Shown here one piece after another: positions 6,815 to 50,652 of a stretch of 64,000 bases of DNA; position 1 is the stretch's first letter; every line of letters starts with the position of its first letter. The notes under the pieces were generated by a model. That model was not told where the DNA came from. It did no database searches and worked only from the letters and a program-made list of their open reading frames with translations. The translations under genes were made by a program, and so were the position numbers. The DNA is from Nitrosopumilus sp. (GTDB lineage Archaea > Thermoproteota > Nitrososphaeria > Nitrososphaerales > Nitrosopumilaceae). The stretch spans positions 160,001-224,000 of the forward strand of contig OY759726.1 in assembly GCA_963662625.1 (NCBI GenBank), read 5' to 3'.

Positions 6815-6847
6815 GGGCACCTCCATTCCGTGCGGATTTAAGCCGGG

Positions 6848-17593: not shown

Positions 17594-17595
17594 GC

Positions 17596-21335: not shown

Positions 21336-24300
21336 CTAATCCCCCCTCCCCTCCTTCTTCCTGCCGAGCCCCAGCCCGAACCCGCCGAGCATGCCCGACG
21401 CCTTCCCGGCGATCCCGCCGTCTCCGCCCGCCCGGGCCCGGGGCGCCTGCGCCTGGGGGGCGCCTCCCCCCTTCCTCGAGAAGGCGGAGCCGAGCCCGCG
21501 CGCGGCGTCGGCGAGGTTCAGGAAGGTGTCCGGCGACTTCAGCCTGACCAGGATTACCGGCGCGGCGGTGCCGGCGGCGATGACGGCCATCAGGACGGTA
21601 TAGTCCGGCTCGTACTCCACATGGGCGTCGACGGAGTCCAAGGCCTCGAACCTCACGGTGTTGCCGGACAGCACTGCGTCGGCTGGCACGTCCCTCCACG
21701 CCGAGGGGTTGTGCCAGACCAGGCCGAAGAGCTCGGAGGACGGCCTGGCCGTCACGGCCACGGGATCCCCGTACTTGTAGGGGCCGGTGCCGTCGACCAC
21801 GGGGACCGCCGCCGAGTCGGAGAACGCCTCGACGCGGACGTCGATCTCCCTCTGGTACGTGGCCTCGAACACGGAGTCCTCGTCGATGTTGTAGGTGAAC
21901 GTCTCGGCGAAGCGCACCTCCTCGCCGTTGTGATTCATGGCCCGGGCGTTGTAGATCCTGTCGCTCCCTATGGCGTGGTCGGTCTCGACCGACACCTCGT
22001 AGACGCCGGCGGGCACCCTCTCCGTGAAGCCGTTCTTGACGGTCACCGGCCCACCTCCGGAGTCCACGGTTATGGACGCCGGTATGGGGGTGCCGTCGTC
22101 GACCAGCGCCACGAACTTGAGGTCGACCATGTGCTCCACTTCCCAATCGAGGGTCTCGACGAACTCGTCCCACCCGTCGGCCGTCACCCTCACGGTCGCC
22201 GAGTAGGCCCCGGCGGCGTCGGGGGTGGCCGACCACGTGCCGTCGGGGAGCGGCTCGAAGAACCCACGCGGGCTCACCGACACCGCCGGGCTGGCAAGCG
22301 ACGAGGCGTCCACCCTGAACCTGATGTCCTCCCCGAAGGAGACCCTCTCGGGGGAGATCGACGCCACCGAGACCTTGCCCCCGGTGAGGTTCGAGTACGA
22401 GTCAAAGCCCGCCTCCGCTATGTACTTGTCGTCGGATATCACCGTGAACCTCCAGTCGGGCCGGTCCCCGTCTTCCCCCTCCCCCCCGGCGGCGCCGCCG
22501 TCCATGGCCGGATCCCCGAAGACCACCGCCCTGGTCTGCCCGGCGGAGGTGTCGTATGCCGTCACGCCCGGGTCAGTGAACGTGAGGCCCGCCGCCGCGT
22601 ACCTGTCAAGCGGCACCCCCTCGGCGTTGACGGAATGGACCACGAACGGGAACTCCGATCCAAGGTTGATCCTCCCCGGCGTCCACGCCTCGATGGCCGA
22701 GTTCAGGCCGCTCACGGAGATCCTGACTGGCTCCGACGTGGCCCTGGGGAGTATCGGGTGCATCACGGCCGACTCCTTCACGTAGGTTCCGGACACCGTG
22801 GTCACCCCTCCCGTCCACCTGTCCCCGACCTCGATGCCCGCCAGCCCGTCCCCGGACTGCGACACCATGGCAAGCTCCATCTGCTCGGCCGACACGTCGC
22901 CGGTTATCGCCCCGGTGGCCGCGTCCAGCACGTACATGTACGCGACGTCGGCGGGCCGCCCCAGGATGGCTGGGATGGAGGAGAGGGCGACGGAGTTGTC
23001 GCTGCCGTAGGCCGGCGCGTTTGTGAACTCCACGGTGGCTGATATCCCGTCGATCCCGGCGGTCACCACGTGGTCGCCGAAGGTGTGGAGATCCATCGGG
23101 ACGACTATGGAGGAGGAATAGTACATGCTGGTCAGCGGGTCGCCGAACTCTATGCTGTCGTCGGAGGAGAACTGCGATATCCCGGCGAGCCTGTTTGGCT
23201 CCATCCTCACCGGCTCCATCCCGCCTCCCCCGGACAGCGGGTCCGGGCACTCCCCGGCCGCGGGCGCCCCGCCAGACGAGTACGAGGCCGCCACCAGCCA
23301 CGCGAAATCCGCCGGGACTTCCGGGTAGACCCAGGCGCACGTCACCCGGACCGGCTCCCCCCGGCCCCCGGCGTCACCGCCGCCGGCTGGGCGGCTGACC
23401 GCCACGGGGGCCACGGCGGTGCCCACCCCGTCGATGGTGACCGTTATGGCGCCAAGGCCGTCGCCCCTGGCCGGGCCCTGTTCCCCATGATCGTCCGGCG
23501 GCGGCGCCCGCGGCCCTGGATCCGCCTGCCCCGCGGGGCCGCCCGCCCCGTCCCCAAAGGCGTACTTTTCCCTCACCGCCGGGGAGAAGAGCACGTCGGT
23601 CATGGCCATCCCGCCGCGCAGCATCATCCCCACCGAATGGAGGTCCGACGACTCCCCGGCCGAGAACCTGGCGACTGACTCCGGGTCGGCCGCGGACGCC
23701 GTCACCTCCACCAGCCCGTCCGGGACGAAGAGCCTCCCGCCCTTCTCGGTCCACGCCACCAGCTTGCCGTGGGTGCCCGGGGCGCCCGGGGAGGGGAAAA
23801 CCACCGCCCTCAGGTCGACCTCGTTCTCGACGTAGTCGATCCGGACTGCGTCCGACTCGAACCCGTCCGAGGAGGCGTACACCGTCCCGTCGCCGTTGAC
23901 GTGGATGAAAAAGTCGGCGGCGTACTCGCCCCGGGGTATCACGACGCGCATCTGCCCCCCAAAGTCGCCGTGGCCGGTCTGGCTGAACCCCGAGTCGGAG
24001 GTCGACGTCAGGACCACCGGTATTCCCATCGGCGCCGGCGTCGGCACCCCCAGGTTGTCGGTGAGCACCGCCTTTGCGGGGACGACGGTCGATGAGGTGG
24101 CGAGCACCGGGCCGCTTTCCGCCCCGCCCGCGGCGCCAGGGCCCCCGGCGCGGTCCTGGGCGTCGCCACCCGCGCCGCCCTGGGCCGGCGCCTGGCCCCC
24201 GCCCGGGACCACCAGCCTTATCGACGTCGGCATGTTCACGACCACGTACACGCTGGTCTCGTCGGTCGCGATCTCCCCCCCGGCCACCGCGTTGAGGGTG

Positions 24301-24581
24301 ACGGACTCCAGGTCGGAGGTGGTGTTCGAGCTGAAGGGGAATATGGCGTGGTTCCTCCCAGCCTCGAGCACCACCGTCCGGGGGAACGCCATGTCCCCGG
24401 AATGGTCGCTCGCCAGGTTCACCACGGTCTCCGAGTCCATGGGGGAGTCTGTGGAGACCATCCCCTCGTACTGCACGCCGGCGATCATCTTGTCGGGTAT
24501 GTCGACCGCCAGCTCGGCGTGAGCCGCCGCGGCGGGCAGCGCGGCGGCGGCGAGCAGGAGGAGGAGGGCGCGGTTCAGCAC
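21336..24581 (-). CDS. Large surface protein with Ig-like beta repeats and C-terminal TM
   Basis: GTG start, signal peptide LLLLLAAAALPAAAAHA, TM YTVLMAVIAAGTAAPVILV; overlaps upstream stop. Confidence 0.7.
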   Translation of the reverse strand: MLNRALLLLLAAAALPAAAAHAELAVDIPDKMIAGVQYEGMVSTDSPMDSETVVNLASDHSGDMAFPRTVVLEAGRNHAIFPFSSNTTSDLESVTLNAVAGGEIATDETSVYVVVNMPTSIRLVVPGGGQAPAQGGAGGDAQDRAGGPGAAGGAESGPVLATSSTVVPAKAVLTDNLGVPTPAPMGIPVVLTSTSDSGFSQTGHGDFGGQMRVVIPRGEYAADFFIHVNGDGTVYASSDGFESDAVRIDYVENEVDLRAVVFPSPGAPGTHGKLVAWTEKGGRLFVPDGLVEVTASAADPESVARFSAGESSDLHSVGMMLRGGMAMTDVLFSPAVREKYAFGDGAGGPAGQADPGPRAPPPDDHGEQGPARGDGLGAITVTIDGVGTAVAPVAVSRPAGGGDAGGRGEPVRVTCAWVYPEVPADFAWLVAASYSSGGAPAAGECPDPLSGGGGMEPVRMEPNRLAGISQFSSDDSIEFGDPLTSMYYSSSIVVPMDLHTFGDHVVTAGIDGISATVEFTNAPAYGSDNSVALSSIPAILGRPADVAYMYVLDAATGAITGDVSAEQMELAMVSQSGDGLAGIEVGDRWTGGVTTVSGTYVKESAVMHPILPRATSEPVRISVSGLNSAIEAWTPGRINLGSEFPFVVHSVNAEGVPLDRYAAAGLTFTDPGVTAYDTSAGQTRAVVFGDPAMDGGAAGGEGEDGDRPDWRFTVISDDKYIAEAGFDSYSNLTGGKVSVASISPERVSFGEDIRFRVDASSLASPAVSVSPRGFFEPLPDGTWSATPDAAGAYSATVRVTADGWDEFVETLDWEVEHMVDLKFVALVDDGTPIPASITVDSGGGPVTVKNGFTERVPAGVYEVSVETDHAIGSDRIYNARAMNHNGEEVRFAETFTYNIDEDSVFEATYQREIDVRVEAFSDSAAVPVVDGTGPYKYGDPVAVTARPSSELFGLVWHNPSAWRDVPADAVLSGNTVRFEALDSVDAHVEYEPDYTVLMAVIAAGTAAPVILVRLKSPDTFLNLADAARGLGSAFSRKGGGAPQAQAPRARAGGDGGIAGKASGMLGGFGLGLGRKKEGRGD

Positions 24582-24976
24582 CTTGCCTCGAGCCCCTTTA
24601 GCGCCTGGGTGAAGTTCCCGACCAGCGCCCTCGTAGCCGCGTCCGTGGCGTTGGCGCTGAACACGCTCTTGCCCCCTACGGACATCCTGTACGGCGCCTC
24701 GTGCGTCCTGCCGTCGTCGCACCTCACCATCAGCCCTATCACGTTGACCTGGTTCGGCCCCCTGTTCTCCACGGTGAGCGTGTCGGTCCCGTTGAGCGGC
24801 CCCGTGTCCGGCCTCTTGAGGTACACCGTGGCGACCTCCTCCCTTATCCGGTCCGTCTGCAGCGAGGAGGCCTCCTCCCGCCTCTCCGCCACGTCGTCCC
24901 TGTGGGAGAAGTAGAGCATGGCCGTGGAGAGGGCCATGAAGATCAGCACTATCGCCACTATCGTGGTTATTATCAC
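24575..24976 (-). CDS. Minor pilin-like / N-terminally anchored protein
   Basis: N-terminal hydrophobic helix then LTVENRG beta domain typical of archaeal pilin/FlaF-like proteins; TTTTAA box at 24998-25003. Confidence 0.6.
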   Translation of the reverse strand: MIITTIVAIVLIFMALSTAMLYFSHRDDVAERREEASSLQTDRIREEVATVYLKRPDTGPLNGTDTLTVENRGPNQVNVIGLMVRCDDGRTHEAPYRMSVGGKSVFSANATDAATRALVGNFTQALKGLEARC

Positions 24977-25006
24977 GGGAGGAACAACCGGCGCGGCTTA
25001 AAAGGG

Positions 25007-25837
25007 TCACGAGATCTCCCCCTCGCCCAGCCCGGAGCTCTTCGACGCCATCCTCCCCACGTCGAACTCGACGGTCATGGTGTCGTGGTTCGACGGGAAG
25101 GATAGGAAGGACATGATCTCAAAGTCGGCCAGGATCGGCACGCGGGACGCCCCGAGGAACGGGATCCCGCACCTGCCGTGCATGTCTGCCATGGCCCGCT
25201 TTTCGGACACCCGCTTGCGCCGGAACGCGCCGGATGGGAAGCCGCCCCCGATCACCGACCCGTCGTCGGGGTTCATGGCCCCGGACACCAGGCGGCAGAC
25301 GAAGATGTTCCTGGTGCCGAGCTTCTCCCTGGCCGAGGCGATCCTGTCGCGCTTGGCGCCGGACACCGTCTTGGTCGCCTTGGAGAGGAACCTCATGGCG
25401 CTGGAGGGGTCCTGGCCCCTCTCCAGCGTGGATATGTACTGCCTGACCGGCTGCGGGTTCTGCGACTTGCGGGCGTGCAGGGCGAAGAAGGCGGAGTCGG
25501 ACGTCTGGTTTGCCAGGGTGCCGTACATGGATATCGGCTCCATCTGCTTCGGGGTTATCACCTCGGCGCAGTGCCTCGCCGTCGAGTACGAGGAGTAGGA
25601 GGCAAATCCGGCGAGGTCCGGGCCTGGGGACGCCAGCACCTCCGTGCCCTCCAGCGCCAGCAGCGTGGCCCTGTTGGCCTCTTCCGCCCTGAGGAATATC
25701 CTGGTGGTGGAGCCTTCCTTGATCACCGCCATCAGGAACTCCCGGACGTGGTCCAGCACCCTCATCATGTTGTCCTCCCCGCTGGTGTCGGAGTCCGTCC
25801 TGTACGGCCTGAGCTCGTACCACTGCGCGTTCAGCAC
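25007..25837 (-). CDS. Hypothetical cytoplasmic protein in the transfer cluster
   Basis: GTG 25837 overlapping upstream stop; protein-like composition from LNAQWYELRPY onward. Confidence 0.6.
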   Translation of the reverse strand: MLNAQWYELRPYRTDSDTSGEDNMMRVLDHVREFLMAVIKEGSTTRIFLRAEEANRATLLALEGTEVLASPGPDLAGFASYSSYSTARHCAEVITPKQMEPISMYGTLANQTSDSAFFALHARKSQNPQPVRQYISTLERGQDPSSAMRFLSKATKTVSGAKRDRIASAREKLGTRNIFVCRLVSGAMNPDDGSVIGGGFPSGAFRRKRVSEKRAMADMHGRCGIPFLGASRVPILADFEIMSFLSFPSNHDTMTVEFDVGRMASKSSGLGEGEIS

Positions 25838-27813
25838 CCGTTCGCCACCGCCCACGCGTCGTGCCGGAACTCGCTGTCCTGGCAGAACCTCCAGCTTATC
25901 GAGGAGGCCCCCGAGACGTCTAGCAGGTACTCGTTGAGGACGGCGCCGTTGCACGTGACCTTGGCCACCATCCTGCCGTACGACCCGGTGAGCTGCCCGT
26001 CGTCCTCGTCGAGCGTCGCCGTGCTCCCGGGGGGGCACGCCTCGCGGATGGCGTCCCTGGCCTGCGCGCCCCCCGGCATCGAGAGCTCCGGCGCCGACGC
26101 CAGGGCGAACCTGGCCACCGTCCCGTCGAGCATCCTTACGGTGTCGCCGTCGATGACCGCCGCCACCGTCCCCGTGGCGCACCTTGCCACCCCGGAGCAC
26201 CGCGGCGGCTCCGGCGCGGCCTCGCGCACCTCCACGATGCTGCGCTCCCCCGGTACCTCGAACGCGAGGATCCTCGAGCCAGGCCCGGACATGTCGTCGT
26301 GGGGGACCGGCTCCCCCCCGACCGAGACCGAGAGGGGGAGGGCCTCGCCAGTCAGAGACGTGCCCAGCATGGACCGTGGAAACTCCAGGGTGACGCTGCG
26401 CTGCATGCCAGGCTCTACGGCTACCCATATCGCCCCCTCGGAGGCGTAGGGGACGTGCGCCCTCCCGTGCAGGACCACCGGCTCGGCGGCCGGGTCCACG
26501 AGGGTGAACGCGGCCGACGCCGAGGCGCCGCCGTGCGCCAGCGTCGCCGTCACCCTCCCGGAGTGGGCGAGTCCGGAAGTCGGGATCTCCTCGGAAAAGT
26601 ACCCCGGCGGGAGCGCGGGAAACGTGCTGGCCTGCAGGGGGTCGCCGTCCGGCGAGTAGAGCGTCACGGTGGCGTCCCCGGACATGGGGGTGTGGCCGAA
26701 GAGCGTCACCGGATCCCCCGCGCGGTGGGCGTCGCCCGAGACCTCCAGGGTGATTGCCAGCGGCTCGCTTGCCACCTTCCGCAGGTACGACATCACCATC
26801 GCGTAAAGGTCCTCGATCCCGTAGTCCTCGATGAACGCGGCGACGTCCTCCCTGGTCTGGAGGTCACGGAGCGACTCGAGGAAGGACGGCGCGTCGGCAA
26901 GCGGGGGGCCGTCCGGCGCGGCCGGCGCGGGGGAGGGGGCCTCCGCGGGAGGCGGCGCCGGCGCCGGTTCTGGCTCTTTTGGGACGGCCTCAGACAGCCC
27001 CCCTGGGGATTCGGCCACGGAGGGGTGGGAGGAGCCGATGAGCCTGAACCAGAACTTGCCGCCGACGTTGGGGTCCCGGTACGCGTCCATGGTGGACGCC
27101 GTCATGGTCCCCGACACCGGGAAGGGGAACCCCGGGTGGACCAGCATCTGCACCATCTGGCCGCCCGGGACGTACCCCACGCGGTACAGCATCCCGGCAA
27201 GCGACGTCCCGCCGAACTCGTAGCCGTACTGCCTGCCGGTGACCAGGATTTCCCCGTCCCTGTCCCACTGCTCCCCGACGCGCAGGACCGGGTAGTACTG
27301 GAGCAGCCTCCCGTCGCCGATCCTCACCTTGGCGCCCATGAAGAGCAGCGTCTCCTCGAGGAGGGCGTAGTGGGGGTCGGTATAGTACCCCGGGCTGTGG
27401 CGGAGCGTCCACCCGGCGTCGGCCACCAGCGCCAGGTCCGTCACCGGGCCGGACGACGCCATGCGGTCGTAGGAGATGGCCGACTGGTCCCCCGCCACCT
27501 CCCCGGAGACGTGTCCCACCCTGGCATAGTTCCCGCCGTGAAAGCCGCCGTGGCCGAGCCTGTCCTGCAGCCTGGCCTCGAACCCGGTGCCGCCCGGCGC
27601 CGGGCCGGCATTCTCGAGGACGACGTCAAAGCACGTCGCCCTCTCCACGCAGACGCGGTACGCGTAGGTGTCGCCGGGGGCGGTCGCCCCGGCCCTGTCC
27701 CACCGGTCCGCCCTGGCAAGCGAGTCCTCGGCAAGCCCGGCGTGGGCCGGTGCCAGCCAGGCCGAGAGCGCCACCGCGGCCGCCGCCAGCGCGAGTAGGC
27801 TAGCCGCGGACAA
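25831..27813 (-). CDS. Secreted protein with C-terminal thermonuclease (SNase) domain
   Basis: Signal peptide; GTVAAVIDGDTV...ASAPEL...GSYGRMVAKV.C...LNEYLL. Confidence 0.8.
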   Translation of the reverse strand: MSAASLLALAAAAVALSAWLAPAHAGLAEDSLARADRWDRAGATAPGDTYAYRVCVERATCFDVVLENAGPAPGGTGFEARLQDRLGHGGFHGGNYARVGHVSGEVAGDQSAISYDRMASSGPVTDLALVADAGWTLRHSPGYYTDPHYALLEETLLFMGAKVRIGDGRLLQYYPVLRVGEQWDRDGEILVTGRQYGYEFGGTSLAGMLYRVGYVPGGQMVQMLVHPGFPFPVSGTMTASTMDAYRDPNVGGKFWFRLIGSSHPSVAESPGGLSEAVPKEPEPAPAPPPAEAPSPAPAAPDGPPLADAPSFLESLRDLQTREDVAAFIEDYGIEDLYAMVMSYLRKVASEPLAITLEVSGDAHRAGDPVTLFGHTPMSGDATVTLYSPDGDPLQASTFPALPPGYFSEEIPTSGLAHSGRVTATLAHGGASASAAFTLVDPAAEPVVLHGRAHVPYASEGAIWVAVEPGMQRSVTLEFPRSMLGTSLTGEALPLSVSVGGEPVPHDDMSGPGSRILAFEVPGERSIVEVREAAPEPPRCSGVARCATGTVAAVIDGDTVRMLDGTVARFALASAPELSMPGGAQARDAIREACPPGSTATLDEDDGQLTGSYGRMVAKVTCNGAVLNEYLLDVSGASSISWRFCQDSEFRHDAWAVANGC

Positions 27814-28498
27814 ACTTGATCTCCCTCTCCACTATGCTGTCGCCGGTGCGATCCCCGTCGACCTCGGCTATGGTGATCTTCCTCGTGCCGTGGCAGTCCC
27901 CGTAGTCCAGGATCACGTCGACCTCGCCGGCCGCCGAGGAGATGTCGGTGCGGATCGGCCTGCCGTCAAGCACCACCCTGACCCTCTTCCTCGGGATGAT
28001 CTGGCCGTCCCTGGTCTTGAGGACTATCGAGATGCGCATCAGCGCCCCCGGGGATACGTGCACCTCCATCTTCTGCGGCTTGCGCTGGCGCTGGGGGGCG
28101 GCCTCCGGCCTGTGCCGCTCCCGGCGCCTGGCCAGGGAGGACGAGGGGACCGCCAGCACCCCGGAGTCCGCCCCCGCCGCGGCCTTCTTGCCCCTTTTCG
28201 TCCCCCTGGGGGTCTTCCTGCCCCCGGCGTAAAAGGTGACTATGGAGAGCAGCCTGCCCTCGTAGCCGATCACGGGGGGGCGGACCATGGCGAAGACGGC
28301 GAACGCCGCCAGGGTTATGGCCGCGGTGTGGATCTCCTGGCTTGCCTGCAGGACGGCGAACATCGCCGGGAGGCCCAGCCCGAAAATGATGATGGCCTGG
28401 TAGAGCGATATGAATCCAAGCACGGGGAAGGTCAGGAGCGGCTGGGTGAGGGTCGGGTTTTTCGGGAACCACGTCATGTTCTCCTGCGCGTACGACAT
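27800..28498 (-). CDS. PrgI/VirB3-like small membrane protein with C-terminal beta domain
   Basis: FISLYQAIIIFG and two TMs followed by RPP..GYE, the layout of PrgI-like proteins; tra-type promoter upstream. Confidence 0.45.
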   Translation of the reverse strand: MSYAQENMTWFPKNPTLTQPLLTFPVLGFISLYQAIIIFGLGLPAMFAVLQASQEIHTAAITLAAFAVFAMVRPPVIGYEGRLLSIVTFYAGGRKTPRGTKRGKKAAAGADSGVLAVPSSSLARRRERHRPEAAPQRQRKPQKMEVHVSPGALMRISIVLKTRDGQIIPRKRVRVVLDGRPIRTDISSAAGEVDVILDYGDCHGTRKITIAEVDGDRTGDSIVEREIKFVRG

Positions 28499-28601
28499 CG
28501 TGGAATAGCAAGGCGGGCGCTTTTAAGGGGGCGGATCCCCATGGCTGGCGCCGGGGCGGGCGGCGCCTGCCGGGACGCGGCCTTCCCGCGCCAGGCGACG
28601 C

Positions 28602-28985
28602 TCACCCGCGCCTGGCCCTGGCCTCGATTATCCCCATTATCTCCATGGCCCCCGCGGTGTCCAGCCCCCCGAGCGAGCCGTCGGCCCGCCCGTCGTCCTG
28701 CGCCGGCCTGGCCACGGTCCCCATCCCCGGGGCGGTTATCCTCAGCGAGGAGGAAAAGTAGCCCCTTTCTATCGCGACGTTCATGATGTCGCGGTACCGA
28801 AAGTACTCCACCTTCTCGCGCAGCCCCAGCAGCAGGGGGTTCCTGATTATGACCTTGCGGTCGGTGGCGAATATGGTGCCCGGCGTCACGGGGGAGCCTC
28901 CCGGGACGTGCCTCGCCTGGGTGGCCATGGCGAGGACCTCCTCGCCTTCGTCCAGGTATCGGGAGATCCTGCCAGTCTCGCTCAA
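28602..28985 (-). CDS. Bacterial/archaeal PH (bPH) domain protein
   Basis: YLDEGEEVL...IFATDRKVII...YRDIMNVAIERGYFSSSLRI. Confidence 0.75.
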   Translation of the reverse strand: MSETGRISRYLDEGEEVLAMATQARHVPGGSPVTPGTIFATDRKVIIRNPLLLGLREKVEYFRYRDIMNVAIERGYFSSSLRITAPGMGTVARPAQDDGRADGSLGGLDTAGAMEIMGIIEARARRG

Positions 28986-29071
28986 AACAGGCTCTTCACC
29001 CCGGTCGTCATCCTAGATACGGCGGCGGCTCCGGCCAGGACCAGCAGGACGGCGCAGATCGCGAGGAACAT
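28982..29071 (-). CDS. 29-aa hydrophobic peptide (MFLAICAVLLVLAGAAAVSRMTTGVKSLF)
   Basis: Manual translation; stop overlaps TTG of PH gene (TTGA). Confidence 0.45.
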   Translation of the reverse strand: MFLAICAVLLVLAGAAAVSRMTTGVKSLF

Positions 29072-29074
29072 GGG

Positions 29075-29080
29075 AAAAAA
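29075..29080 (-). terminator. Oligo-T tract after the major pilin gene
   Basis: TTTTTT on minus strand 14 bp after stop. Confidence 0.4.
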
Positions 29081-29093
29081 GCGAAGGGGGTGG

Positions 29094-29783
29094 CTAGCCC
29101 GGCTTTACGCGGGTGTTGTAGATGTCGGACACGTACTCGTCGTCGCCTGAGGTGTACGCCAGCTGCATGGTGAGGCGGTCGGATATGGTGATGTTGTCGG
29201 ATATCACCCCCCCTGCTGCTACGGGGACGTTGCCTGTTCCATTAGGCAGACTGACCTTCAACTGGAGGGCCACAGACGCGCCGCCGTCAAGTGATGATAC
29301 GTCGGTGGGACATATTGAGAATCCCTTTTGGGTGTCCAATATGTCATCGCCTGTGGCTTCAGTAGTTGGTATTGCTGGGGTGGCGGGAATACCGCACTGA
29401 GCGTTAGTTTTACCATTGACGAAAGATTCAACGGTAGAAGTACCTGAAACAACATTCAACCTCCCATCCTCTCTGTCATCATCCGTGATCTTGAAGCTGT
29501 CCCCGGTCGAGATCTCGTTGATGAATATGTCAGTCACCGACGTGGAGCCGGCGTTCTTGATGTTGGCGGTGATGGACAGCGTGTCCCCGTTCCTGATGGC
29601 GTTGACGTTCCGAATCTCCAGCTGCGTCGAGGTGCTGAACAGGTCCGCCTGCTCCTGGAAGGCATAGTACACGCCGCCCCCCACGGAGGCGGTGATCCCT
29701 ATCCCTATCACCATGCCGAGCACGGCCGAGACCGCCAGCAGCTTCTTCCTTTTTGTCGTCATTGTCCGTTCCTTGGATTGCAT
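29094..29783 (-). CDS. Putative major type IV pilin
   Basis: KRKKLLA/VSAVLGMVIGIGIT class III signal, then TQLEIRNV...SITANIKNAGSTSV archaeal pilin beta domain; own promoter. Confidence 0.8.
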   Translation of the reverse strand: MQSKERTMTTKRKKLLAVSAVLGMVIGIGITASVGGGVYYAFQEQADLFSTSTQLEIRNVNAIRNGDTLSITANIKNAGSTSVTDIFINEISTGDSFKITDDDREDGRLNVVSGTSTVESFVNGKTNAQCGIPATPAIPTTEATGDDILDTQKGFSICPTDVSSLDGGASVALQLKVSLPNGTGNVPVAAGGVISDNITISDRLTMQLAYTSGDDEYVSDIYNTRVKPG

Positions 29784-29961
29784 TGCTGCCAAGGATGGCG
29801 GGCGTATTTAAGGGGTGGAAAATAGGGCGGTTGATCGCGGGGGAGTCCAGGAGGTGCATGGAATGTGGGAATGGGGCGTACTGCGCGGCCCCCGGATCTG
29901 CCGGGGCTTGACTGGCAGAATCGCCTGCCGCCAACTTTGAGGGCCGGGTGGGCTTCTCCTA

Positions 29962-30255
29962 TCAGACAAGCCAGTCCCTCCTCATGTCAATTTCGATGGT
30001 GGAGACGTACCTTCTCACTCCCTCCACTTCCACCTGGGCCGAACTGGTCCTGATCCCGCCCATGGTGAATTTGACCAACTCTTCCTCGGCCCCGAGCCTC
30101 TTCCTGGCAATCACGGCGATGTCCACCGCCTTCGTGATGTTCCTCCCGGAAGCCCTCAGGGTGATCCACCCGCCTGGATCCGACATGGCTTCCAGAAGCT
30201 GCGTGGCGTACACCATGGACTCCCCGTCCCCCACGGTCACCGTCGCCTCCCCCAT
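29962..30255 (-). CDS. albA: Alba-family DNA/RNA-binding chromatin protein
   Basis: ITLRASGRNITKAVDIA...VSTIEI Alba signature. Confidence 0.85.
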   Translation of the reverse strand: MGEATVTVGDGESMVYATQLLEAMSDPGGWITLRASGRNITKAVDIAVIARKRLGAEEELVKFTMGGIRTSSAQVEVEGVRRYVSTIEIDMRRDWLV

Positions 30256-30538
30256 GGGCGTTGGTTTGCTGGGGGCAGATTTGAGGTTGGCTGGGGCCCA
30301 CATGCCAGATTGGCGCGTGGTGCCACGCGCCCGCCACTTGAATCCCAACCCCCAGATCCGCGTCCGGCGCGGCCGTCGCCATTAGGAAGGGGTCGCCCTC
30401 AGGAAGGCGGCCTCCTGCCGGCTCCTCACCGGGATCCCATTGGGCCTTCGTGATCATCCCATGGGGCGCCCCATCCATGCCGCGCGCCGGGCCGTGGGCC
30501 GGCCGCCGCCCTTTTATGCCCGCCAGGTTGTTAGTCCC

Positions 30539-30703
30539 GTGATCGACGTCCCCTTCCGCTGCCCAAAATGCGGCGGCGGGCTGCAGATGACGTACTATGT
30601 CGCCCCGCTGCGGGTGCTGAGGAAGAGGACGTGGTACTGCTGCAAAAAATGCGGCTTCGAGGCGCAGGCCGACGAGTTCAAGGCCGAGCTGTTCTGCCCC
30701 TGA
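30539..30703 (+). CDS. Small Zn-ribbon protein (CPKC...CKKC)
   Basis: GTG start about 21 bp after TTTTAT box at 30512-30517; two CxxC pairs. Confidence 0.65.
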   Translation: MIDVPFRCPKCGGGLQMTYYVAPLRVLRKRTWYCCKKCGFEAQADEFKAELFCP

Positions 30704-31091
30704 CGTTGAGGCGCCACCCCGCGAGGTGCAACCCCCCGAACGCCACCAGCGCCGCCCCGGCCATCCCGGCGTCGGGGGCGGCGAACATGAGCATTGGGAG
30801 GACCAGCGCGGCGATCGAGATCTCAAACCCGATCTGCGCGGCCACCGCCGTCCCGAACCCCCTCCTGCACAGCGCCGAGAACAGCGGTGACGTCTCGCAC
30901 CTCCTGACCGTCTCCAGCCCGTAGGAGACGGTGCTCCTGACGTCGAGGGCGAACCCGACAGAATACGCGGCGGCCCCCGCGAGGAGCGCCCACCACGACA
31001 GCCACTGCGGGATGAGGAACGACGCGGCGACGGGCGCCGCCGACGCGGCGACCAGGAGGAAAAAAATGGGGGGTCGGATCAGTCCCGGCAC
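30678..31091 (-). CDS. Small multi-TM membrane protein (DUF5658-like)
   Basis: Four hydrophobic segments and LDVRST...ETSP pattern; start uncertain. Confidence 0.5.
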   Translation of the reverse strand: MPGLIRPPIFFLLVAASAAPVAASFLIPQWLSWWALLAGAAAYSVGFALDVRSTVSYGLETVRRCETSPLFSALCRRGFGTAVAAQIGFEISIAALVLPMLMFAAPDAGMAGAALVAFGGLHLAGWRLNVRGRTARP

Positions 31092-31453
31092 CCGGCGGCG
31101 GGCGCCGGCAGGGCGCGCACCCGCAGCATTATGACCGACGCCAGGATCCCCATGATCAGGACGATCTTGATGACCCACATCACGAGGGTGAACAGGTTGT
31201 TGAGCCCGCCGGTGACGCTGGCGGGCAGGAGGGCGCCGCTGGTCGCGTTGCCCTTGTCGTCGATGAAGGTCCCCTGCGGGGGCCTGAACAGCACGTCCTC
31301 GGCCGTCTCGCCGGACGGAATCTGCGTCCCCATCATCATGAGTATTATGCTCGGCGCTATGAACACCAGGATGGCCGCGAAGATGCAGGTTATCAGCATC
31401 CCCTGGAACTTGCTCATGTTCTCGGAGTCTTCCTTGCGGTTCTCCATTACCAT
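31079..31453 (-). CDS. Small two-TM protein, candidate VirB2/TrbC-like conjugative pilin
   Basis: 124 aa, two long hydrophobic helices, own TTAAATAC promoter at 31473-31480, T-tract after stop. Confidence 0.45.
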   Translation of the reverse strand: MVMENRKEDSENMSKFQGMLITCIFAAILVFIAPSIILMMMGTQIPSGETAEDVLFRPPQGTFIDDKGNATSGALLPASVTGGLNNLFTLVMWVIKIVLIMGILASVIMLRVRALPAPAAGCRD

Positions 31454-31537
31454 GGCGTGAACATCGCGGAGAGTATTTAACCCGGCCAGGAACAGGGGCG
31501 GGGGGCGGCTTAAATCCAAACGCGCGGGTTGTCACCG

Positions 31538-32933: not shown

Positions 32934-32989
32934 GCCGGCAAGCAGCCCGCGCGTATTTAGGGTTATACGCGGCCCCCATTCCGGTGCCC

Positions 32990-34123
32990 ATGGAGAGGAC
33001 GGTGGTGGACCTGTTCTGCGGCGCGGGTGGCATGTCCCTGGGGTTCGCCCAGGCCGGGTTCGAGGTGGCCTTCGGGGTGGACAGCGACAGGCACTCGGTC
33101 GGCACGTTTGCCCGCAACCACGGCCCGGCGTCCGTCGAAGACGTCGCCAACGTGGACGCGGAATACGTCCTGGACTCGGCCGGCATCGGCGGCGTCGGGG
33201 TCCTGGTCGGGTGTCCCCCGTGCCAGGGGTACAGCAGGGCCGGCGCCGGCAGGCTGCGCTCGGCGGGGCGGCCCACGGGGATGGGGGACCCGCGCAACTC
33301 CCTCTACTCCGAGTTCCTCAGGCTGGTGAGGGAGATCCGCCCCGAATGGTTCGTGATGGAGAACGTGCCCGGGATGCTCACTGTCGGCGGGGGGGCCGTG
33401 AGGAGGGGGATCCCGGCGGGCGCCGGGCCGGGGTACTCCGTGTCGTTCATGGTGCTCGACGCGGCCGACTTTGGCGTCCCGCAGCACAGGCGGAGGGCCA
33501 TAGTCATCGGCAACCGGCTCGGCGTCCGCAACCCGCGTCCGGGGAGGACCCACTGCCCGCCGGGGGAGGCGTGGGGGTCTGGGCTGCGGCCGCACGTGAC
33601 GGTGGCCGACGCGATATCGGACATGCCTCCCCTGGGGCCGGGGGAGGGGGAGCCGTGCGCGCCCTACCCGGAGGGGGCCCGGCCGACGGAATACCAGGCC
33701 GGGATGAGGAGGGGGTGCGACCGCCTGTACTGGCACGTCGCCAGGAGGCAGGGGGCGCGCGACCTCGGGATATTCGCGATGCTGCCGCCGGGCGGGAAGA
33801 TAGGGGACCTGCCGGGGCGAGTCAACCCGTGGCCCAACTCCTTCCTGGACAGGTACAGGAAGCTGCCGGTGGACGCGCCGTCGCACGCCGTCATATCCCA
33901 CCTGGCGAAGGACGGGATGACCCACGTCCACCCGGATCCTGGGCAGAACAGGAGCATAACCCCGAGGGAGGCCGCCAGGCTGCAGTCCTTCCCCGACAGC
34001 TACCGCTTCGACGGCCCGCCTGGCAGCCAGTTCAGGCAGATCGGCAACGCCGTCCCGCCGCTGCTGGCCAGGATGGTGGCGGAATCGGTGGCCCGCGCCG
34101 CGGCGGGTGCCGGCGCGGCGTGA
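32990..34123 (+). CDS. dcm: DNA (cytosine-5) methyltransferase
   Basis: [50 protein letters not shown]. Confidence 0.95.
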   Translation: MERTVVDLFCGAGGMSLGFAQAGFEVAFGVDSDRHSVGTFARNHGPASVEDVANVDAEYVLDSAGIGGVGVLVGCPPCQGYSRAGAGRLRSAGRPTGMGDPRNSLYSEFLRLVREIRPEWFVMENVPGMLTVGGGAVRRGIPAGAGPGYSVSFMVLDAADFGVPQHRRRAIVIGNRLGVRNPRPGRTHCPPGEAWGSGLRPHVTVADAISDMPPLGPGEGEPCAPYPEGARPTEYQAGMRRGCDRLYWHVARRQGARDLGIFAMLPPGGKIGDLPGRVNPWPNSFLDRYRKLPVDAPSHAVISHLAKDGMTHVHPDPGQNRSITPREAARLQSFPDSYRFDGPPGSQFRQIGNAVPPLLARMVAESVARAAAGAGAA

Positions 34124-35585: not shown

Positions 35586-37463
35586 TCAGAGGTCCGGCGC
35601 CGCCGTGTCGAACGTCTTGAGCTGCTTCTCCGTCGGCATTATGGAGACCTTGATCCTGTTGTTGTCGCTGCGCATTATGGCCTGCCCCTTGTGGAGCGTG
35701 GTTATCTCGTCTGCCTCCTTCTGGGAGAGCTTCAGTATCTTCTTGAGCAGCGCGGCCGTCTCCGGCAGCATCCTGAGCAGCACCTTCGTCGAGGAGTTGT
35801 TGATTATCCCCTTGCCGTGGACGTTCGTCATCACGTCGTCGAGCTCCTGGGTCATGACCAGCATGTGCACGTTCTCCTTCCTCCCGGACTTCACGATGTC
35901 GTTGAGGACCGCCGCCGTCGACTCCATCCGGAGCATGAACCACGCCTCCTCTATCACCAGGAGCTTGGGGACGTGCTCGGGGGCGTCGCGCATGTCCTGC
36001 CAGATCTTCATCAGTATCAGGGTGATCAGCATCGCCGTGACCCGGTCCTTGCTGGCCTTCCTCATCGCGATCGTGGTCATGTCGCCCACGTCCATCTTCC
36101 CGGCGAACATCCTGGCGAGGCCGCCGTCGACGAACTGGGCCAGGTAGGTGGCGGCCTTGCGGCAGTCGTCGGCGTCGTCGCCGCCGTCGGTCCTGAGCCT
36201 GTCCACCAGCTCCGCGGTGCTGCCGGCGCCGGCCGACCTGGCGAGGGTGAGGGAGCGGAGGTTCGGCGGCATCTCCACGACGTCGCAGAGTATGCCGGCG
36301 GCCTGGTCCGCGTTGGCCGACACCTTGAACGGGTCCAGCCCCATCTCGTCGCGGGTCATCATGTCCACGACCCCCATCCCCAGGTAGTCCGACAGCCGGA
36401 CGTATTCCCCGTGCAGGTCCAGGATGTACGCCATCACCCGGTGGTCCTCGCCGTACCTGGTCCGGATCATCTGGAAGAAGTTGTCCACGTAGGTCTTCAC
36501 CGTCATGCTCTTGCCGTACCCGGACTGGCCCAGTATGATCATGTTGTAGTTGGCCCTCCTGGAATAGTCGTATATCACCGGGGCGCCGGTTATCTGGTTG
36601 TCCCCCAGGTAGACCCCGTTTGGCTCCATCATGTCGGACGAGGAGAAGGGGAAGAACGCCGCCGTGGACTGGAGGGGGAAGGCGAACCTCTTCCCCCACC
36701 CGGCCAGCGTGTCCCTCTGCTTCCCGGCCACGGCCATGCAGGAGATCTGCCTCTGCCTGGCCTGCCGCTCGAACTCCCTGCACTCCTCGCGCAGGCTCTT
36801 CCTGTCGCGGTGCGTGACCACGGCCGTGACGCCGCACTCGAGCAGCGACGTCTCCTGGTTGTGCATCATGTCGTTGACCCTCCTGGCCTCGGCGGCCTCG
36901 ACCTTGTGCCTCCCCCCGATCTTGGCCTCCAGCGTGTTGGCGTGCCCCACCAGGAAGCTCCTGGCCCTTCCGTCAGATATCGGGGTCATGGAGACGTTGA
37001 CGATGCTGCATATCTCCGACAGCCTCATCACCCACGCCGGCCTTATGGACCGGGGGAAGTTGTACACGGTGTACGCCCTCCACCACGCCCCGGACTCCAT
37101 CTCCATCGACCTCAGGTTCTCCCTCCGGATCTCCCAGGACGGCGGGGACTCGGTCCGGACGAACTGGAAGCCGCTGCCCATCAGCAGCTTCCCGAGGTCG
37201 AACTTGGACGTCAGGTAGACGGCGTGGTCCATGTACTGGTGCTGGTGCCCGGCGGCGGCCACCTCGGCCCTCTTGTTTATTATCCTCATGTCCAGCCTCT
37301 TCTCCGCCGCGCCCACGATCCTGGCGAACGACGCCAGGACGTCGGCCTTCTCCTGCTCGCTGAGTATGTCGTAGTTCGTGGGGGTGAGCTTGTATGTCGT
37401 GGCCCGCGGCCTCTTCCTGGCGCCGGCCCCCCTCCCCTGGCGCGCCTTCCCACTGCCGAACAT
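35586..37463 (-). CDS. virB4: VirB4-family conjugative transfer ATPase
   Basis: GVYLG, NYNMIILGQSGYGKS Walker A, ILDLHGEY, LVIEEAW Walker B, KSGRK, MTQ. Confidence 0.9.
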   Translation of the reverse strand: MFGSGKARQGRGAGARKRPRATTYKLTPTNYDILSEQEKADVLASFARIVGAAEKRLDMRIINKRAEVAAAGHQHQYMDHAVYLTSKFDLGKLLMGSGFQFVRTESPPSWEIRRENLRSMEMESGAWWRAYTVYNFPRSIRPAWVMRLSEICSIVNVSMTPISDGRARSFLVGHANTLEAKIGGRHKVEAAEARRVNDMMHNQETSLLECGVTAVVTHRDRKSLREECREFERQARQRQISCMAVAGKQRDTLAGWGKRFAFPLQSTAAFFPFSSSDMMEPNGVYLGDNQITGAPVIYDYSRRANYNMIILGQSGYGKSMTVKTYVDNFFQMIRTRYGEDHRVMAYILDLHGEYVRLSDYLGMGVVDMMTRDEMGLDPFKVSANADQAAGILCDVVEMPPNLRSLTLARSAGAGSTAELVDRLRTDGGDDADDCRKAATYLAQFVDGGLARMFAGKMDVGDMTTIAMRKASKDRVTAMLITLILMKIWQDMRDAPEHVPKLLVIEEAWFMLRMESTAAVLNDIVKSGRKENVHMLVMTQELDDVMTNVHGKGIINNSSTKVLLRMLPETAALLKKILKLSQKEADEITTLHKGQAIMRSDNNRIKVSIMPTEKQLKTFDTAAPDL

Positions 37464-37512: not shown

Positions 37513-39018
37513 GTGGCCGACAAGCGTTACAAGCTGCACAGCATCAAGATGGACGCCGGCGCCATCGAGACGCTGGAGAAGTACAAGGTGGGGAAGGTCG
37601 ACGTCACCATAACGGGGGACGGGAGGTACCTGGTGCAGGAGCCGGTGATGCCGGCGGGGGGCGACGACCTCTACGACCAGATCATGAAGAAGATAGAGAT
37701 GAGCTTCGTGATGGACCACGAGGACGACTCCGACCCGGAGGTCATAGCGATAAACTTCGAGAGGGAGTTCTGGGAGACCACCAGGCGGCTCAACAAGTTC
37801 GAGGAGGCCAAGGGCATGTTCTCGAACATCGAGTACTACATCCGGCGCGACATCCTGGGCTTCCTCCTGATCGACCCGCTGATGAGGGACCCCGACATAG
37901 AGGACGTGCTGTGCTCGGCCCCGGCCAGGAACATCCGGGTGATCCACAAGAGGTACTCCGGGCGGTTCCACACGCTGGAGACCAACGTGGCGTTCGCGGA
38001 GTCCAGGGACATGGAGAAGTTCATCCAGAGGATGTACGGCCGCACCGGGACGGAGCCCACGGAGTCCTCCCCGATATCCGTCACGTACCTGCGCGACGGC
38101 TCCAGGATCAGCTGCACGTTCGGCTCCCAGGTGTCCTCCCCCGGGCCGGTCATAGCCATCCGGAAGTTCCCGGAGTCCCCGCTCACCGTCACCGACATGA
38201 TAAAGTCCGGGACGATGACGGCCGAGGTCGCCGCGTACATCTGGACCCTCCTCGACGCCAAGGCGGTCGGGCTGGTGATCGGGGTCACCGGCTCGGGGAA
38301 GACCACCCTGCTGGGCTCGTTCACCACCATGATGAACCCGAGGTGGAGGATCCTGACGGTCGAGGACACGCTGGAACTGCAGATACCGCACCCGGACTGG
38401 GTCAGGTACCGCACGCGCAAGTCGTACGGGCAGCTCTCCGACAAGTTCGACGTCACCATGCGGCACCTGATAGACTCGTCCCTGACGCAGCGCCCCGACT
38501 ACGAGATCATAGGGGAGATCAGGCTCGACGACATGGACATGCTGTTCCAGTCCGTCGGCACCGGCCACGGCGGGCTGACCAGCTTCCACGCCTCCAGCCC
38601 CCGCGGGGCCATAACCAGGATGAGGGGCAACAAGATATCGGACGGGGAGATAGCCCTGACGTGGTTCGCGGTGCACACGAGGGACGTGGAGCTCGACGGG
38701 ATCCGGGTCAGGAGGGTCAACGACGTCTCGGAGATAGTCCCGGACGAGGAGACCGGGAAGATAAGCGTGAAGCCCGTGTTCGGGTACGACGTCTTCACCG
38801 ACACTATAAAGAGGAAGGCCATGCTGCAAAACTGCGAGAGGTACGTCGAGGCCACCCACGTCTGCGGGATACGCGAGCCCGAGAAGGACATGGGGTACAG
38901 GATCGGGCTGCTCGACGAGTGCGTCGAGAAGGGGGCCACCGACCCCAGGTCGGTCTTCAGGATACTCGGGCGGTACTACTCCCGCGGGGGCGGGAAGGCC
39001 GGGCGGGCGGCGCGGTGA
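37513..39018 (+). CDS. Type II/IV secretion (TadA/VirB11/ArlI-like) pilus assembly ATPase
   Basis: IDPLMRDPDIEDV, IRKF, GVTGSGKTT, TVEDTLEL, QRPDYEIIGEIR, TGHGGLTSFHA. Confidence 0.92.
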   Translation: MADKRYKLHSIKMDAGAIETLEKYKVGKVDVTITGDGRYLVQEPVMPAGGDDLYDQIMKKIEMSFVMDHEDDSDPEVIAINFEREFWETTRRLNKFEEAKGMFSNIEYYIRRDILGFLLIDPLMRDPDIEDVLCSAPARNIRVIHKRYSGRFHTLETNVAFAESRDMEKFIQRMYGRTGTEPTESSPISVTYLRDGSRISCTFGSQVSSPGPVIAIRKFPESPLTVTDMIKSGTMTAEVAAYIWTLLDAKAVGLVIGVTGSGKTTLLGSFTTMMNPRWRILTVEDTLELQIPHPDWVRYRTRKSYGQLSDKFDVTMRHLIDSSLTQRPDYEIIGEIRLDDMDMLFQSVGTGHGGLTSFHASSPRGAITRMRGNKISDGEIALTWFAVHTRDVELDGIRVRRVNDVSEIVPDEETGKISVKPVFGYDVFTDTIKRKAMLQNCERYVEATHVCGIREPEKDMGYRIGLLDECVEKGATDPRSVFRILGRYYSRGGGKAGRAAR

Positions 39019-42362: not shown

Positions 42363-42839
42363 CTACCGGACGGTGGCGCCGGCCGCTTCTCCCGGGGGCG
42401 CCCCGTCGATCCGTATGGTGTCAAAGGACACCCTCTTCTCCCTGACGGCGTCCCTTATCCTCCTCTGGACACTGCTGAGCCCGGCCTTGCCCGACTTTAC
42501 GTCCACCAGCGCCACCTCGATCGGATCCTCGCCGTCCATGTTCCGAAAGATGACGTAATCCACCGGGGCCCCCATGAACCTGGCCTCTGACGGCCTGTAC
42601 TTTTCGCAGAACTCGCTCAGGAGGGGGGCCATGTGCTCGCCTATCTTCCCCTTCAGGACGTTCCTTGACTTGTCCACCGCCGCCCTGGATTCCTCCCTTA
42701 TCCTCTCCTCCACGCCTGCCTCCTGGCTTGCCCTGTACGCCTCAAACCTGGAATTCCTTTGGGCGCGCATCGCGGCGTAAACTATCGCCATCCCGGCCAG
42801 CAGCCCCGCCACGGCCGCCGCCACCGCCTCGAACGTCAA
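42363..42839 (-). CDS. Holliday-junction-resolvase-like endonuclease (Endonuc_Holl type) with N-terminal TM
   Basis: SRNVLKGKIGEHMAP...RFMGAPVDYVIF...VDVKSGKAGLS..QRRIRDAV. Confidence 0.85.
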   Translation of the reverse strand: MTFEAVAAAVAGLLAGMAIVYAAMRAQRNSRFEAYRASQEAGVEERIREESRAAVDKSRNVLKGKIGEHMAPLLSEFCEKYRPSEARFMGAPVDYVIFRNMDGEDPIEVALVDVKSGKAGLSSVQRRIRDAVREKRVSFDTIRIDGAPPGEAAGATVR

Positions 42840-44229: not shown

Positions 44230-44339
44230 GGGGGCAACATGTCGGCGGCGATTTAAGGGACGGCGAGCCCTGGCCCCCTGAAAGCCGCCATGGATTCGCC
44301 GTGCCCGCGCGGCCGCCCCATGAAACAATATATTCCGTC

Positions 44340-50345: not shown

Positions 50346-50392
50346 GGGATCAAGAGTCGCGGGCGTATTTAACAGGGAATGGGGGTGGGGGC

Positions 50393-50419
50393 GACCACGT
50401 GCCAATTTGGCACGTGGTC
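50393..50419. promoter_or_regulatory. Perfect 27-bp palindrome upstream of the VirB6-like promoter (candidate operator)
   Basis: GACCACGTGCCAA-T-TTGGCACGTGGTC. Confidence 0.7.
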
Positions 50420-50652
50420 CCGGGCCATGTCGCGCCGCCGTCTCGAACGCCCTCCTGTTCTGTTCCCTGGCCCGCACTTCACTCCAGGAATCTGGGACAT
50501 CCCCGGCCCGGAAGATCCGCGCGCGCCGTCGACCTGAGGGCGAGCCTGTCGCACCCCCCCCGTGCCGCAGGTGGTCGGCGGGACGCCCCTTCCGCCCGCC
50601 ACCGGCCTTGCCGGCCTGGTTCCGCACCTGGAGCATGGCTGGCCTGGCGGCG

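Follow-up and report, generated by a model that had tools for sequence, protein, structure and literature searches.

How does a gene in a GC-rich archaeal gene cluster come to carry, in its middle part only, codons of a markedly lower GC content? The gene that raises this question lies at 29094-29762 on the minus strand of a 64-kb stretch of DNA from Nitrosopumilus sp. (the window, 64,000 nucleotides, about 68% GC), which belongs to a 99.5%-complete genome of 1.86 Mb and 63.4% GC. Its predicted product is a type IV pilin-like protein, and its neighbours encode parts of a conjugation-type apparatus. We found that codons 94-183 (29214-29483) form a tract of deviating synonymous codon usage over the most variable part of the protein. 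We put at about even odds (roughly 0.5) the reading that the DNA of this presumably exposed part came by recombination from a related pilin gene in a host of lower GC content and took the place of the resident sequence.

A Low-GC Tract inside the Pilin-like Gene

The open reading frame (ORF) comprises 222 codons and a stop, with an ATG start at 29762, and a TTG at 29792 would lengthen it by 10 codons. An earlier note on this DNA had counted 56 G or C letters among the 120 at 29341-29460, and the recount returned exactly that figure. The 120-nucleotide windows 29340-29459 and 29400-29519 both showed a GC content of 0.458, while the 64-kb window has a mean of 0.684 with a standard deviation of 0.064 at this window size. 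Values of 0.47 or lower were reached in only 20 of the 6388 windows (step 10), and the coding ones fell almost all inside 29094-29762. The 5' part of the gene, for which 60-68% GC had been claimed, is indeed richer than the tract, at slightly lower measured values (0.53-0.67 per 20-codon block).

It is the third codon position that accounts for this in-frame drop. The GC content at third codon positions (GC3), calculated per 20 codons along the gene, was 0.85, 0.90, 0.95, 0.90, 0.80, 0.30, 0.40, 0.50, 0.70, 0.75 and 0.90. A two-breakpoint maximum-likelihood segmentation delimited the tract at 29214-29483, in close agreement with the in-frame cassette that had been proposed at 29215-29485, with a GC3 of 0.46 inside the tract and 0.91 in the rest of the gene. 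The gain in log-likelihood was 28.3, a value reached by none of 300 codon permutations (maximum 10.9). The N-side edge is abrupt, GC3 falling from 0.80 to 0.30 between adjoining 20-codon blocks. The tract spans the hypervariable core and a second variable stretch and includes the conserved SLDGG island of the family, with the reading frame intact throughout.

The deviation concerns the choice among synonymous codons. All eight Ser codons of the tract end in A or T, as compared with one of 13 outside it; GGT or GGA encodes 5 of 10 Gly residues in the tract and none of 13 outside; GAT is used for 4 of 9 Asp residues and for none of 9, and AAT for 3 of 5 Asn residues and for none of 8, respectively. 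Since identical amino acids use other codons in the tract, the amino-acid make-up cannot account for the drop in GC.

GC3 profiles were obtained for 23 genes of the window, the reading of 14036-17600 being off-frame and uninformative. The pilin-like gene was the sole profiled gene with a deep internal dip, the others showing values of 0.85-1.0 apart from weak dips and ORF starts. The earlier note had also described this pattern in an adhesin tip and, more weakly, in a VirB6-2 tail; it was recognizable as a weak dip (0.75-0.78) in the tail of the VirB6-like gene, but nothing comparable occurred in the large neighbouring surface-protein genes. Over the whole genome, GC3 was 0.42 or lower in 0.53% of 81,499 windows of 60 codons, many of them at over-extended ORF starts, and an internal 60-codon dip to 0.45 or lower between high-GC3 flanks occurred in 2 of 1196 putative genes, the pilin-like gene having the deepest one (0.38). 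The other such gene (G000:C1:43216-46149, locus L037, outside the window) has a dip to 0.45 and encodes 977 amino acids without a Pfam family.

Predicted Structure and Identity of the Protein

The protein starts with a basic segment, MTTKRKK, followed by the hydrophobic stretch LLAVSAVLGMVIGIGITASVGGGVYYAF (residues ~10-39) and by a domain rich in Ser, Thr, Asn and Asp. An AlphaFold2 model calculated from a 20-sequence alignment (mean pLDDT 76.6, pTM 0.70) showed a single helix at residues 18-39 and then eleven strands arranged in an Ig-like beta-sandwich, with low confidence confined to the N-terminal residues 5-41 and to residues 130-138 (pLDDT below 50 in the latter). Sequence and predicted model thus agree on the pilin-like layout of a short basic end, a hydrophobic helix and a beta-rich globular domain. 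The loop between two cysteines that the earlier note had described is present as stated: C123 (in the context QCGIP) and C151 (SICPT), encoded at 29310-29396 on the minus strand, are the only cysteines of the protein.

An exhaustive structural comparison of the model returned the Sulfolobus FlaF/FlaG complex (5tug, Z 8.6), Sulfolobus FlaF (4p94, Z 8.0), the pilus of Pyrobaculum arsenaticum (Z 7.9), the type IV pilus of P. calidifontis (Z 7.4) and archaellins (Z 6.9), and Foldseek listed archaellins and FlaG at weak scores. The fold fits the FlaF/FlaG/pilin group, yet it is not diagnostic because unrelated Ig-like domains likewise reach Z values of 7-8.5 against the model. Neither the family profile nor the peptidase candidate described below gave a sequence match to solved structures, and no Pfam or NCBIfam family was matched by the protein at E ≤0.01. 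The link of its family to PF07790 Pilin_N appears to be only transitive: weak Pilin_N matches, one of them at the 25.2-bit cut-off, were found in 6 of 27 scanned proteins (26 remote matches of the family profile and the second pilin-like protein of the window), and Pilin_N was present on 26-28% of the members of the nearest named ESM Atlas clusters. On the strength of the predicted model, we regard the product of 29094-29762 as a type IV pilin/FlaF-FlaG-like protein with one N-terminal helix and a beta-sandwich.

Assignment to the VirB2/TrbC type of conjugative pilin (PF18895; CedA1/TedC-like), as the words "conjugative pilin" of the earlier note would imply, was rejected, since the protein has one helix and a beta-sandwich instead of two hydrophobic helices. 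A small protein encoded at 31079-31519 on the minus strand, with two long hydrophobic helices and a loop, matched PF18895 T4SS_pilin at E 0.008, below the cut-off, and by its sequence appears to be the better VirB2/CedA1-type candidate.

The Pilin Family and Its Variable Core

The pilin family is small. Of 401 genomes sampled from the host family, 48, from 11 of 27 genera, contained a match, and the homologues all belong to this same archaeal family. A word-indexed search returned 11 proteins at E ≤0.01, query included, and 30 representatives were recovered at E ≤1e-30 among 1.84 billion. Homologues were expected to show conserved flanks and a divergent core, and they do: in the 20-sequence alignment the mean pairwise identity reached 0.55 over residues 8-85 (N block) and 0.45 over residues 156-222 (C block), as compared with 0.18 over the indel-rich core between them (86-155). 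Cysteines often bound the core, exactly two being present in 12 of the 20 members and none in the other 8.

The rate at which the core changes can be read from six closely related genes of a high-GC genus (g18). The ratio of nonsynonymous to synonymous substitution rates (dN/dS) rose from ~0.1 for the N block to ~0.6-1.2 for the core, dS itself being similar in the closest pairs, and the amino acid identity was 0.95-0.96 in the N block as compared with 0.43-0.50 in the core. Between L013 and L014 no difference was observed in 82 N-block codons, while the cores were 95% identical at the nucleotide level. The core GC3 was 0.84-0.89 in five of the six genes (L011, L013, L014, L016 and L017) and 0.71 in L012.

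Among 14 orthologues for which DNA was available, only the window gene and L005, a locus of a Nitrosopumilus sp. metagenome-assembled genome (MAG), have a significant internal tract of low GC3 that covers the core, neither tract being matched in 200 permutations. The dip of L005 is independent, with values of 0.62, 0.30 and 0.54. In the remaining orthologues the best tracts were either non-significant or located at the extreme 5' end (L013, 0/200; L011, 1/200; L006 and L014, 3/200), where they probably represent non-coding extension.

A further indication on the behaviour of the core came from a genome bin (G016) with two copies of the gene, which are alike at 188 of 240 nucleotides in the N block and at 80 of 94 in the C block, while their cores, of 92 and ~45 amino acids, cannot be aligned. 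Non-homologous forms of the core therefore sit on similar backbones. These copies, L008 (G016:C134) and L036 (G016:C13), lie on contigs of 36-37% GC in a genome labelled with the genus of the window; either the GC content varies very widely within this genus or the contigs were mis-binned. Another genome (G099) showed up to six pilin-family matches, two of them with in-frame stops (TAG and TGA), and these copies may be decayed.

Origin of the Tract

We infer from the compositional break, the synonymous-codon shift and the pattern of conservation that the tract most probably entered the gene by recombination. The N block (~8-85) and the C block (~186-222) would be the conserved assembly and scaffold parts of the protein, and residues ~86-185, which comprise the Cys123-Cys151 loop, its exposed and fast-evolving part. 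Crossovers would have taken place in or beside the conserved blocks, and the synonymous codon usage of the imported DNA (GC3 0.46) would not yet have drifted to the resident value (0.91). Lower-GC donors exist, because the loci of the family span from 34% to 65% GC, and rapid evolution alone does not lower GC3, because the fast cores of g18 mostly keep values of 0.84-0.89. What is envisaged is replacement as an occasional evolutionary event, superimposed on quick in-place divergence of the core, with no programmed switching. The cassette exchange suggested in the earlier note is thus retained in part: the foreign codon signature fits acquisition by recombination, whereas nothing was found of the silent copies, reverse transcriptase, tyrosine recombinase or bounding repeats that a programmed exchange would involve.

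A number of results weigh against this reading. The C-side edge of the tract is gradual (GC3 0.50, 0.70, 0.75, 0.90), and the dip is present in just 2 of the 14 orthologues. No donor was recovered: among 5.8 billion protein clusters, core residues 88-160 match only themselves, no near-identical DNA to 27800-30400 was detected in 40 relatives, and scans with the family patterns found no relative in metagenome contigs (two scans) or viral contigs; genome contigs yielded a single relative, L004. No second protein of these clusters shares the core, and no core is common to divergent backbones in the 780 pairs of 40 unique family members. Across these pairs core identity declines faster than flank identity, so that at the family level the result fits in-place divergence better than exchange. 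Moreover, deviating cores are always lower in GC3 than their flanks and never clearly higher, an asymmetry that random exchange among hosts would not predict. On the protein side, pilins match the model no better than FlaF and FlaG, which do not serve as filament subunits in pili, and PF07790 Pilin_N was matched by none of the 20 family members, even at E 10. Archaeal class III signal peptides are cleaved at a motif with K or R at position -2 and G or A at position -1. In this family the basic residues stand at -3 to -6 of the presumed cleavage site and not at -2, which is occupied by L, A, V or P; the nearly invariant A10 precedes VSAVLG.

The missing donor, the one-sided deviation and the gradual C-side edge can be accommodated if the core was never imported but diverged in place, evolving fast and becoming too unlike other alleles for homologous recombination. 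The force that holds GC3 high, whether conversion biased towards GC or selection on codons, would suffer from interference with recurrent sweeps and be locally ineffective, and AT-biased mutation would lower GC3. Such an origin is consistent with the lack of a donor in protein clusters or in the 40 relatives, with the one-sided deviation of core GC3 and with the fact that cores evolve several-fold faster than flanks in every comparison (the g18 amino acid identities; L013 and L014). A related idea, that non-recombining hypervariable regions of flagellins accumulate slightly deleterious changes, is discussed in a study of flagellins (PMC7018530). Cores that evolve equally fast in high-GC genomes, however, mostly lack a dip (GC3 0.84-0.89 in the five g18 genes), the N-side break is abrupt despite tightly linked flanks, and the tract extends over the conserved SLDGG island. 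Taken together, these data leave divergence in place as a possible but doubtful origin of the tract.

The protein-side results raise a different alternative, namely that the protein is not a pilus subunit but a FlaF/FlaG-like, membrane-anchored beta-sandwich linking a secretion or pilus machine to the envelope, with variable loops that track the host's own envelope. FlaF/FlaG and FlaF head the structural matches, no canonical [KR][GA] cleavage motif is present, and the "pilins" of related elements are filed under a FlaG/FlaF arCOG (PMC6563490). On the other hand, pilins and archaellins score nearly equally (Z 7.9, 7.4 and 6.9), Pilin_N is carried by the above-mentioned fraction of the nearest Atlas clusters and, weakly, by the 6 of 27 scanned proteins, and the cluster includes a gene for a peptidase candidate. 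We consider an anchor of this kind unlikely, and the finding on composition stands whether the protein is a pilin or a FlaF/FlaG-like anchor.

Very little speaks for a low-GC tract that is maintained because the nucleic acid has a function of its own, such as slow translation during folding of the disulfide loop, a promoter within the gene, an antisense RNA or a site for a chromatin protein. The tract does coincide with the region of the loop, and next to the pilin-like gene lies a gene of the Alba family (29962-30348). However, no Rfam match was found in 28000-31000 at E values up to 1, and the dip is missing in 12 of the 14 orthologues and is therefore not a conserved requirement of the family; we regard this explanation as very improbable.

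Programmed variation, by gene conversion from silent cassettes, a shufflon-type invertase or a diversity-generating retroelement, is suggested by a superficial resemblance only, consisting of conserved flanks, a Cys-bounded hypervariable core and an odd composition. Of the checks proposed in the earlier note, those for silent cassettes and for template repeats gave negative answers. Searches of the complete 1.86-Mb genome by blastn and tblastn detected neither, and no part of the gene occurs there a second time, the best non-self matches being a 31-nucleotide one at E 0.087 and a tblastn match of the N-terminus at E 0.053. The genome contains no match to a reverse transcriptase (PF00078 RVT_1) or to a tyrosine recombinase (PF00589 Phage_integrase), and no direct or inverted repeats bound the core.

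Allelic cores were looked for in three sequencing runs of one study that hold the stretch, which were compared as contigs, a form in which rare variants are hidden. Contigs of the first run (X1), which may be the window's own source, cover the whole 4 kb with no difference. Those of the second (X2) cover 28747-31500 with 0 differences and span both junctions of the tract, and those of the third (X3) cover parts of the gene with a single low-depth difference, T>G at 29404, which corresponds to N120T, three residues before Cys123; parts of the stretch are without cover in X2 and X3. No alternative core was present in the contigs of the three runs, which is weak evidence against variation in the population as contigs drop rare variants. 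Together with the missing copies, enzymes and repeats, the recovery of the same allele in all three runs makes programmed variation hardly credible for this gene.

The X2 contigs reproduce both junctions without a mismatch, and the mosaic is therefore not an artefact of one assembly. An assembly chimera, in which a core from another organism of the sample was joined by the assembler, might be imagined, as the genome was obtained from community data and there are related pilin genes whose flanks are similar, but it can be set aside given the X2 contigs, the X3 contigs over parts of the tract, the intact frame and the conserved SLDGG island inside the tract. In the same comparison, a connection of 9 letters between 28600 and 30214 was listed at depths of 53, 19 and 15 in the three runs, with no joint reported; it coincides with pieces of other contigs of ~40 nucleotides that are 80% alike and probably reflects chance similarity from other organisms' contigs.

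The Surrounding Gene Cluster

The claim that the pilin-like gene lies in an archaeal cluster of the conjugation type was supported by the gene context. A pilin-type assembly set is present, consisting of a UpsF/TadC/FlaJ-like platform protein (17596-19452, minus strand; PF00482 T2SSF, E 6.6e-17; NCBIfam UpsF, E 4.5e-65, below the equivalog cut-off), a FlaI/PilB-type secretion ATPase (37513-39018, plus strand; PF00437 T2SSE, E 2.4e-29) and a weak candidate for an A24-like prepilin peptidase (6143-6826, minus strand), whose match to PF01478 (E 0.0045, 18 bits) is below the cut-off and is the only one in the genome. The candidate carries YYDLRER and GAGD, which we take to be its catalytic motifs. 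The set of ATPases typical of integrative and conjugative elements (ICEs) is represented by a VirB4/TraG-type conjugation ATPase (35586-37463, minus strand; PF19044 P-loop_TraG, E 3.7e-16; AAA_10, E 4.6e-10) and by a domain match to a HerA/TrwB-like (HerA/VirD4-like) ATPase within the ORF 14036-19318. They are accompanied in the window by the TadC-like platform, the FlaI-type ATPase, the pilin-like genes and a VirB6/TrbL-like membrane protein (48366-50636, minus strand; PF04610, E 0.0024, below the cut-off), the one with the weak GC3 dip near its C-terminus.

A scan for the N-terminal motif in all six frames of the window returned only the gene at 29094-29762 and a second pilin-like gene at 13268-13759 on the minus strand. 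The latter shows the N-terminal pattern R..AAVSSILG with a hydrophobic stretch, is matched by the family profile at its N-terminus and has a uniformly high GC3 (0.85-0.98). The closest relative in the genome collection, the Nitrosopumilus sp. MAG locus L004, shares the order of the pilin, a bPH-domain gene and two downstream genes, with identities of 51% for the pilin and 57% for the bPH protein as compared with 34-37% for the neighbours. As judged from gene content, the pilin-like gene appears to sit in a cluster of the thaumarchaeal ICE type, where a pilus module lies beside VirB4, VirB6 and the HerA/VirD4-like ATPase. This context, the ICE module described in the literature and the synteny with L004 together point to 29094-29762 as a type IV pilin-like protein of the element's pilus module.

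A promoter-like motif with TTTAAATA is located at 29792-29815 on the minus strand, ~30-50 nucleotides upstream of the ATG at 29762. A 24-nucleotide copy, 83% identical (direct repeat family D8), occurs at 28507-28530, upstream of the gene 27800-28498 on the minus strand. In the coding-strand reading, CCCCTTAAA(T/A)..., the pair looks like a common promoter with a TATA box and a transcription factor B recognition element (BRE).

The cluster further encodes TBP, Alba, PolB, the large subunit of primase and three C5-methyltransferases. The genes of the C-5 cytosine DNA methyltransferases lie at 32984-34123 (plus strand), 43081-44328 and 51054-51569 (both minus strand), one of them being short; an N6/N4 methylase-like gene is found at 45176-46408 and an endonuclease related to Holliday-junction resolvases at 42363-42839. 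In the ORF 21336-25010 (minus strand, 1224 amino acids), the first ~120 codons have a GC3 of 0.40-0.55, while the frame 24575-24997 of the same strand has a GC3 of 0.90 there; this ORF is either over-extended or marks a place where two genes or a frameshift meet.

Possible Function and Significance

If the protein is a pilin, its N-terminal helix would target it to the membrane, the A24-like peptidase candidate would process it, and the UpsF/TadC platform with the FlaI-type ATPase would assemble it into a surface filament from which residues 86-185, with their Cys-bounded loop, would face outward. We infer filament formation, N-terminal processing and surface exposure from the layout of the protein and from its neighbours. 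By analogy with the poorly conserved segment of UpsA in Sulfolobus, the exposed region probably determines the target of the filament, that is the surface of the mating partner, as well as what can bind the filament, and possibly virus attachment.

A broader proposal would be that the exposed region is a partner-specificity module which moves horizontally between conjugative elements of ammonia-oxidising archaea in hosts of 34-68% GC. This is a speculative extension that we judge improbable at present. If true, the codon-usage scar would record a recent change of mating range or of virus susceptibility, and specificity swapping in the conjugation pilus of an archaeon would thereby have its first natural example.

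Elements of this type and their pilin-like genes are already known, and flagellins and bacterial pilins illustrate the principle of a variable, recombining middle between conserved ends; the finding extends this principle and overturns none. The novelty lies in a clean mosaic of composition within an archaeal ICE pilin and in the occurrence, side by side, of family members with and without it. A limited literature search found no earlier description of such a mosaic, which does not prove its absence. To our knowledge, archaeal conjugation outside Sulfolobales is known almost only from gene lists, and a datable foreign signature in a pilin offers a handle on the identity of the part of the machinery that contacts the partner cell. 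It also serves a second question, whether such elements exchange parts across host lineages. Finally, as fast cores with and without a dip coexist in one family, a control comparison is available for the question of what lowers GC3 in hypervariable surface loops, import or a local failure of GC-favouring forces.

Comparison with Known Systems

Bacterial type IVa pilins combine an N-terminal assembly helix with an exposed hypervariable region and a disulfide loop bounded by cysteines, a layout that the present protein would share, and in Neisseria the expressed gene pilE is altered by gene conversion from pilS. In the present case there are no silent pilS-like copies, the Cys loop is located in the middle of the protein within an all-beta domain, and the Cys pair is missing in the same 8 of 20 members. 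In the PilV shufflon of the R64 thin pilus, a type IV pilus of a conjugative element, a variable adhesin part sets the recipient range. The association of a type IV pilus with a conjugative element would be common to both systems, but no recombinase, sfx-like repeats or alternative segments were found here.

A closer parallel in layout is offered by the hypervariable forms of flagellins and archaellins, in which the ends are conserved for assembly, the middle occurs in forms without detectable homology and the endpoints of recombinational replacement fall within the conserved parts (Hu and Reeves 2020, PMC7018530). The layout of the two G016 copies is the same. However, flagellins and archaellins belong to another protein family and form another filament, and the variation in the pilin family mostly looks like graded divergence in place.

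The element itself resembles the thaumarchaeal ICEs, for which the module is annotated and the pilins are listed as arCOG03871 "Pilin/Flagellin, FlaG/FlaF family" in their description (Krupovic et al. 2019, PMC6563490). These belong to the same host phylum and encode VirB4, VirD4/HerA-like, VirB6, TadC, FlaI, a prepilin peptidase and small pilin-like proteins. Their pilins are of ~145-155 amino acids, whereas the present protein has 222 with a long variable insert, and the consulted portion of the paper mentions no compositional mosaic or hypervariable core for them (PMC6563490). The present genome, in contrast, has no Phage_integrase (PF00589) match at E ≤0.001, and the 64-kb window contains no tRNA gene as a target.

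The functional counterpart is the UpsA pilin of Sulfolobales (PMC7064770). The Ups system is chromosomal and induced by ultraviolet light, and the variable region of UpsA spans ~15 residues as compared with ~100 here. The parallel between the two proteins is drawn from layout and setting and not from sequence, and a role in partner choice for the present protein would be by analogy only. UpsA is a type IV pilin and the present protein a type IV pilin-like one, each with a UpsF-type platform, the Ups pilus joining cells for DNA transfer (PMC7064770), and the platform encoded here matches UpsF at the E value of 4.5e-65 given above. In Sulfolobus, a low-conservation region of UpsA at amino acids 84-98 sets species-specific aggregation, and swapping it re-targets the cells to another species (PMC7064770). 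A region of low conservation beginning near residue 84 thus decides the partner in UpsA, and the variable part of the present pilin-like protein may be placed to do the same.

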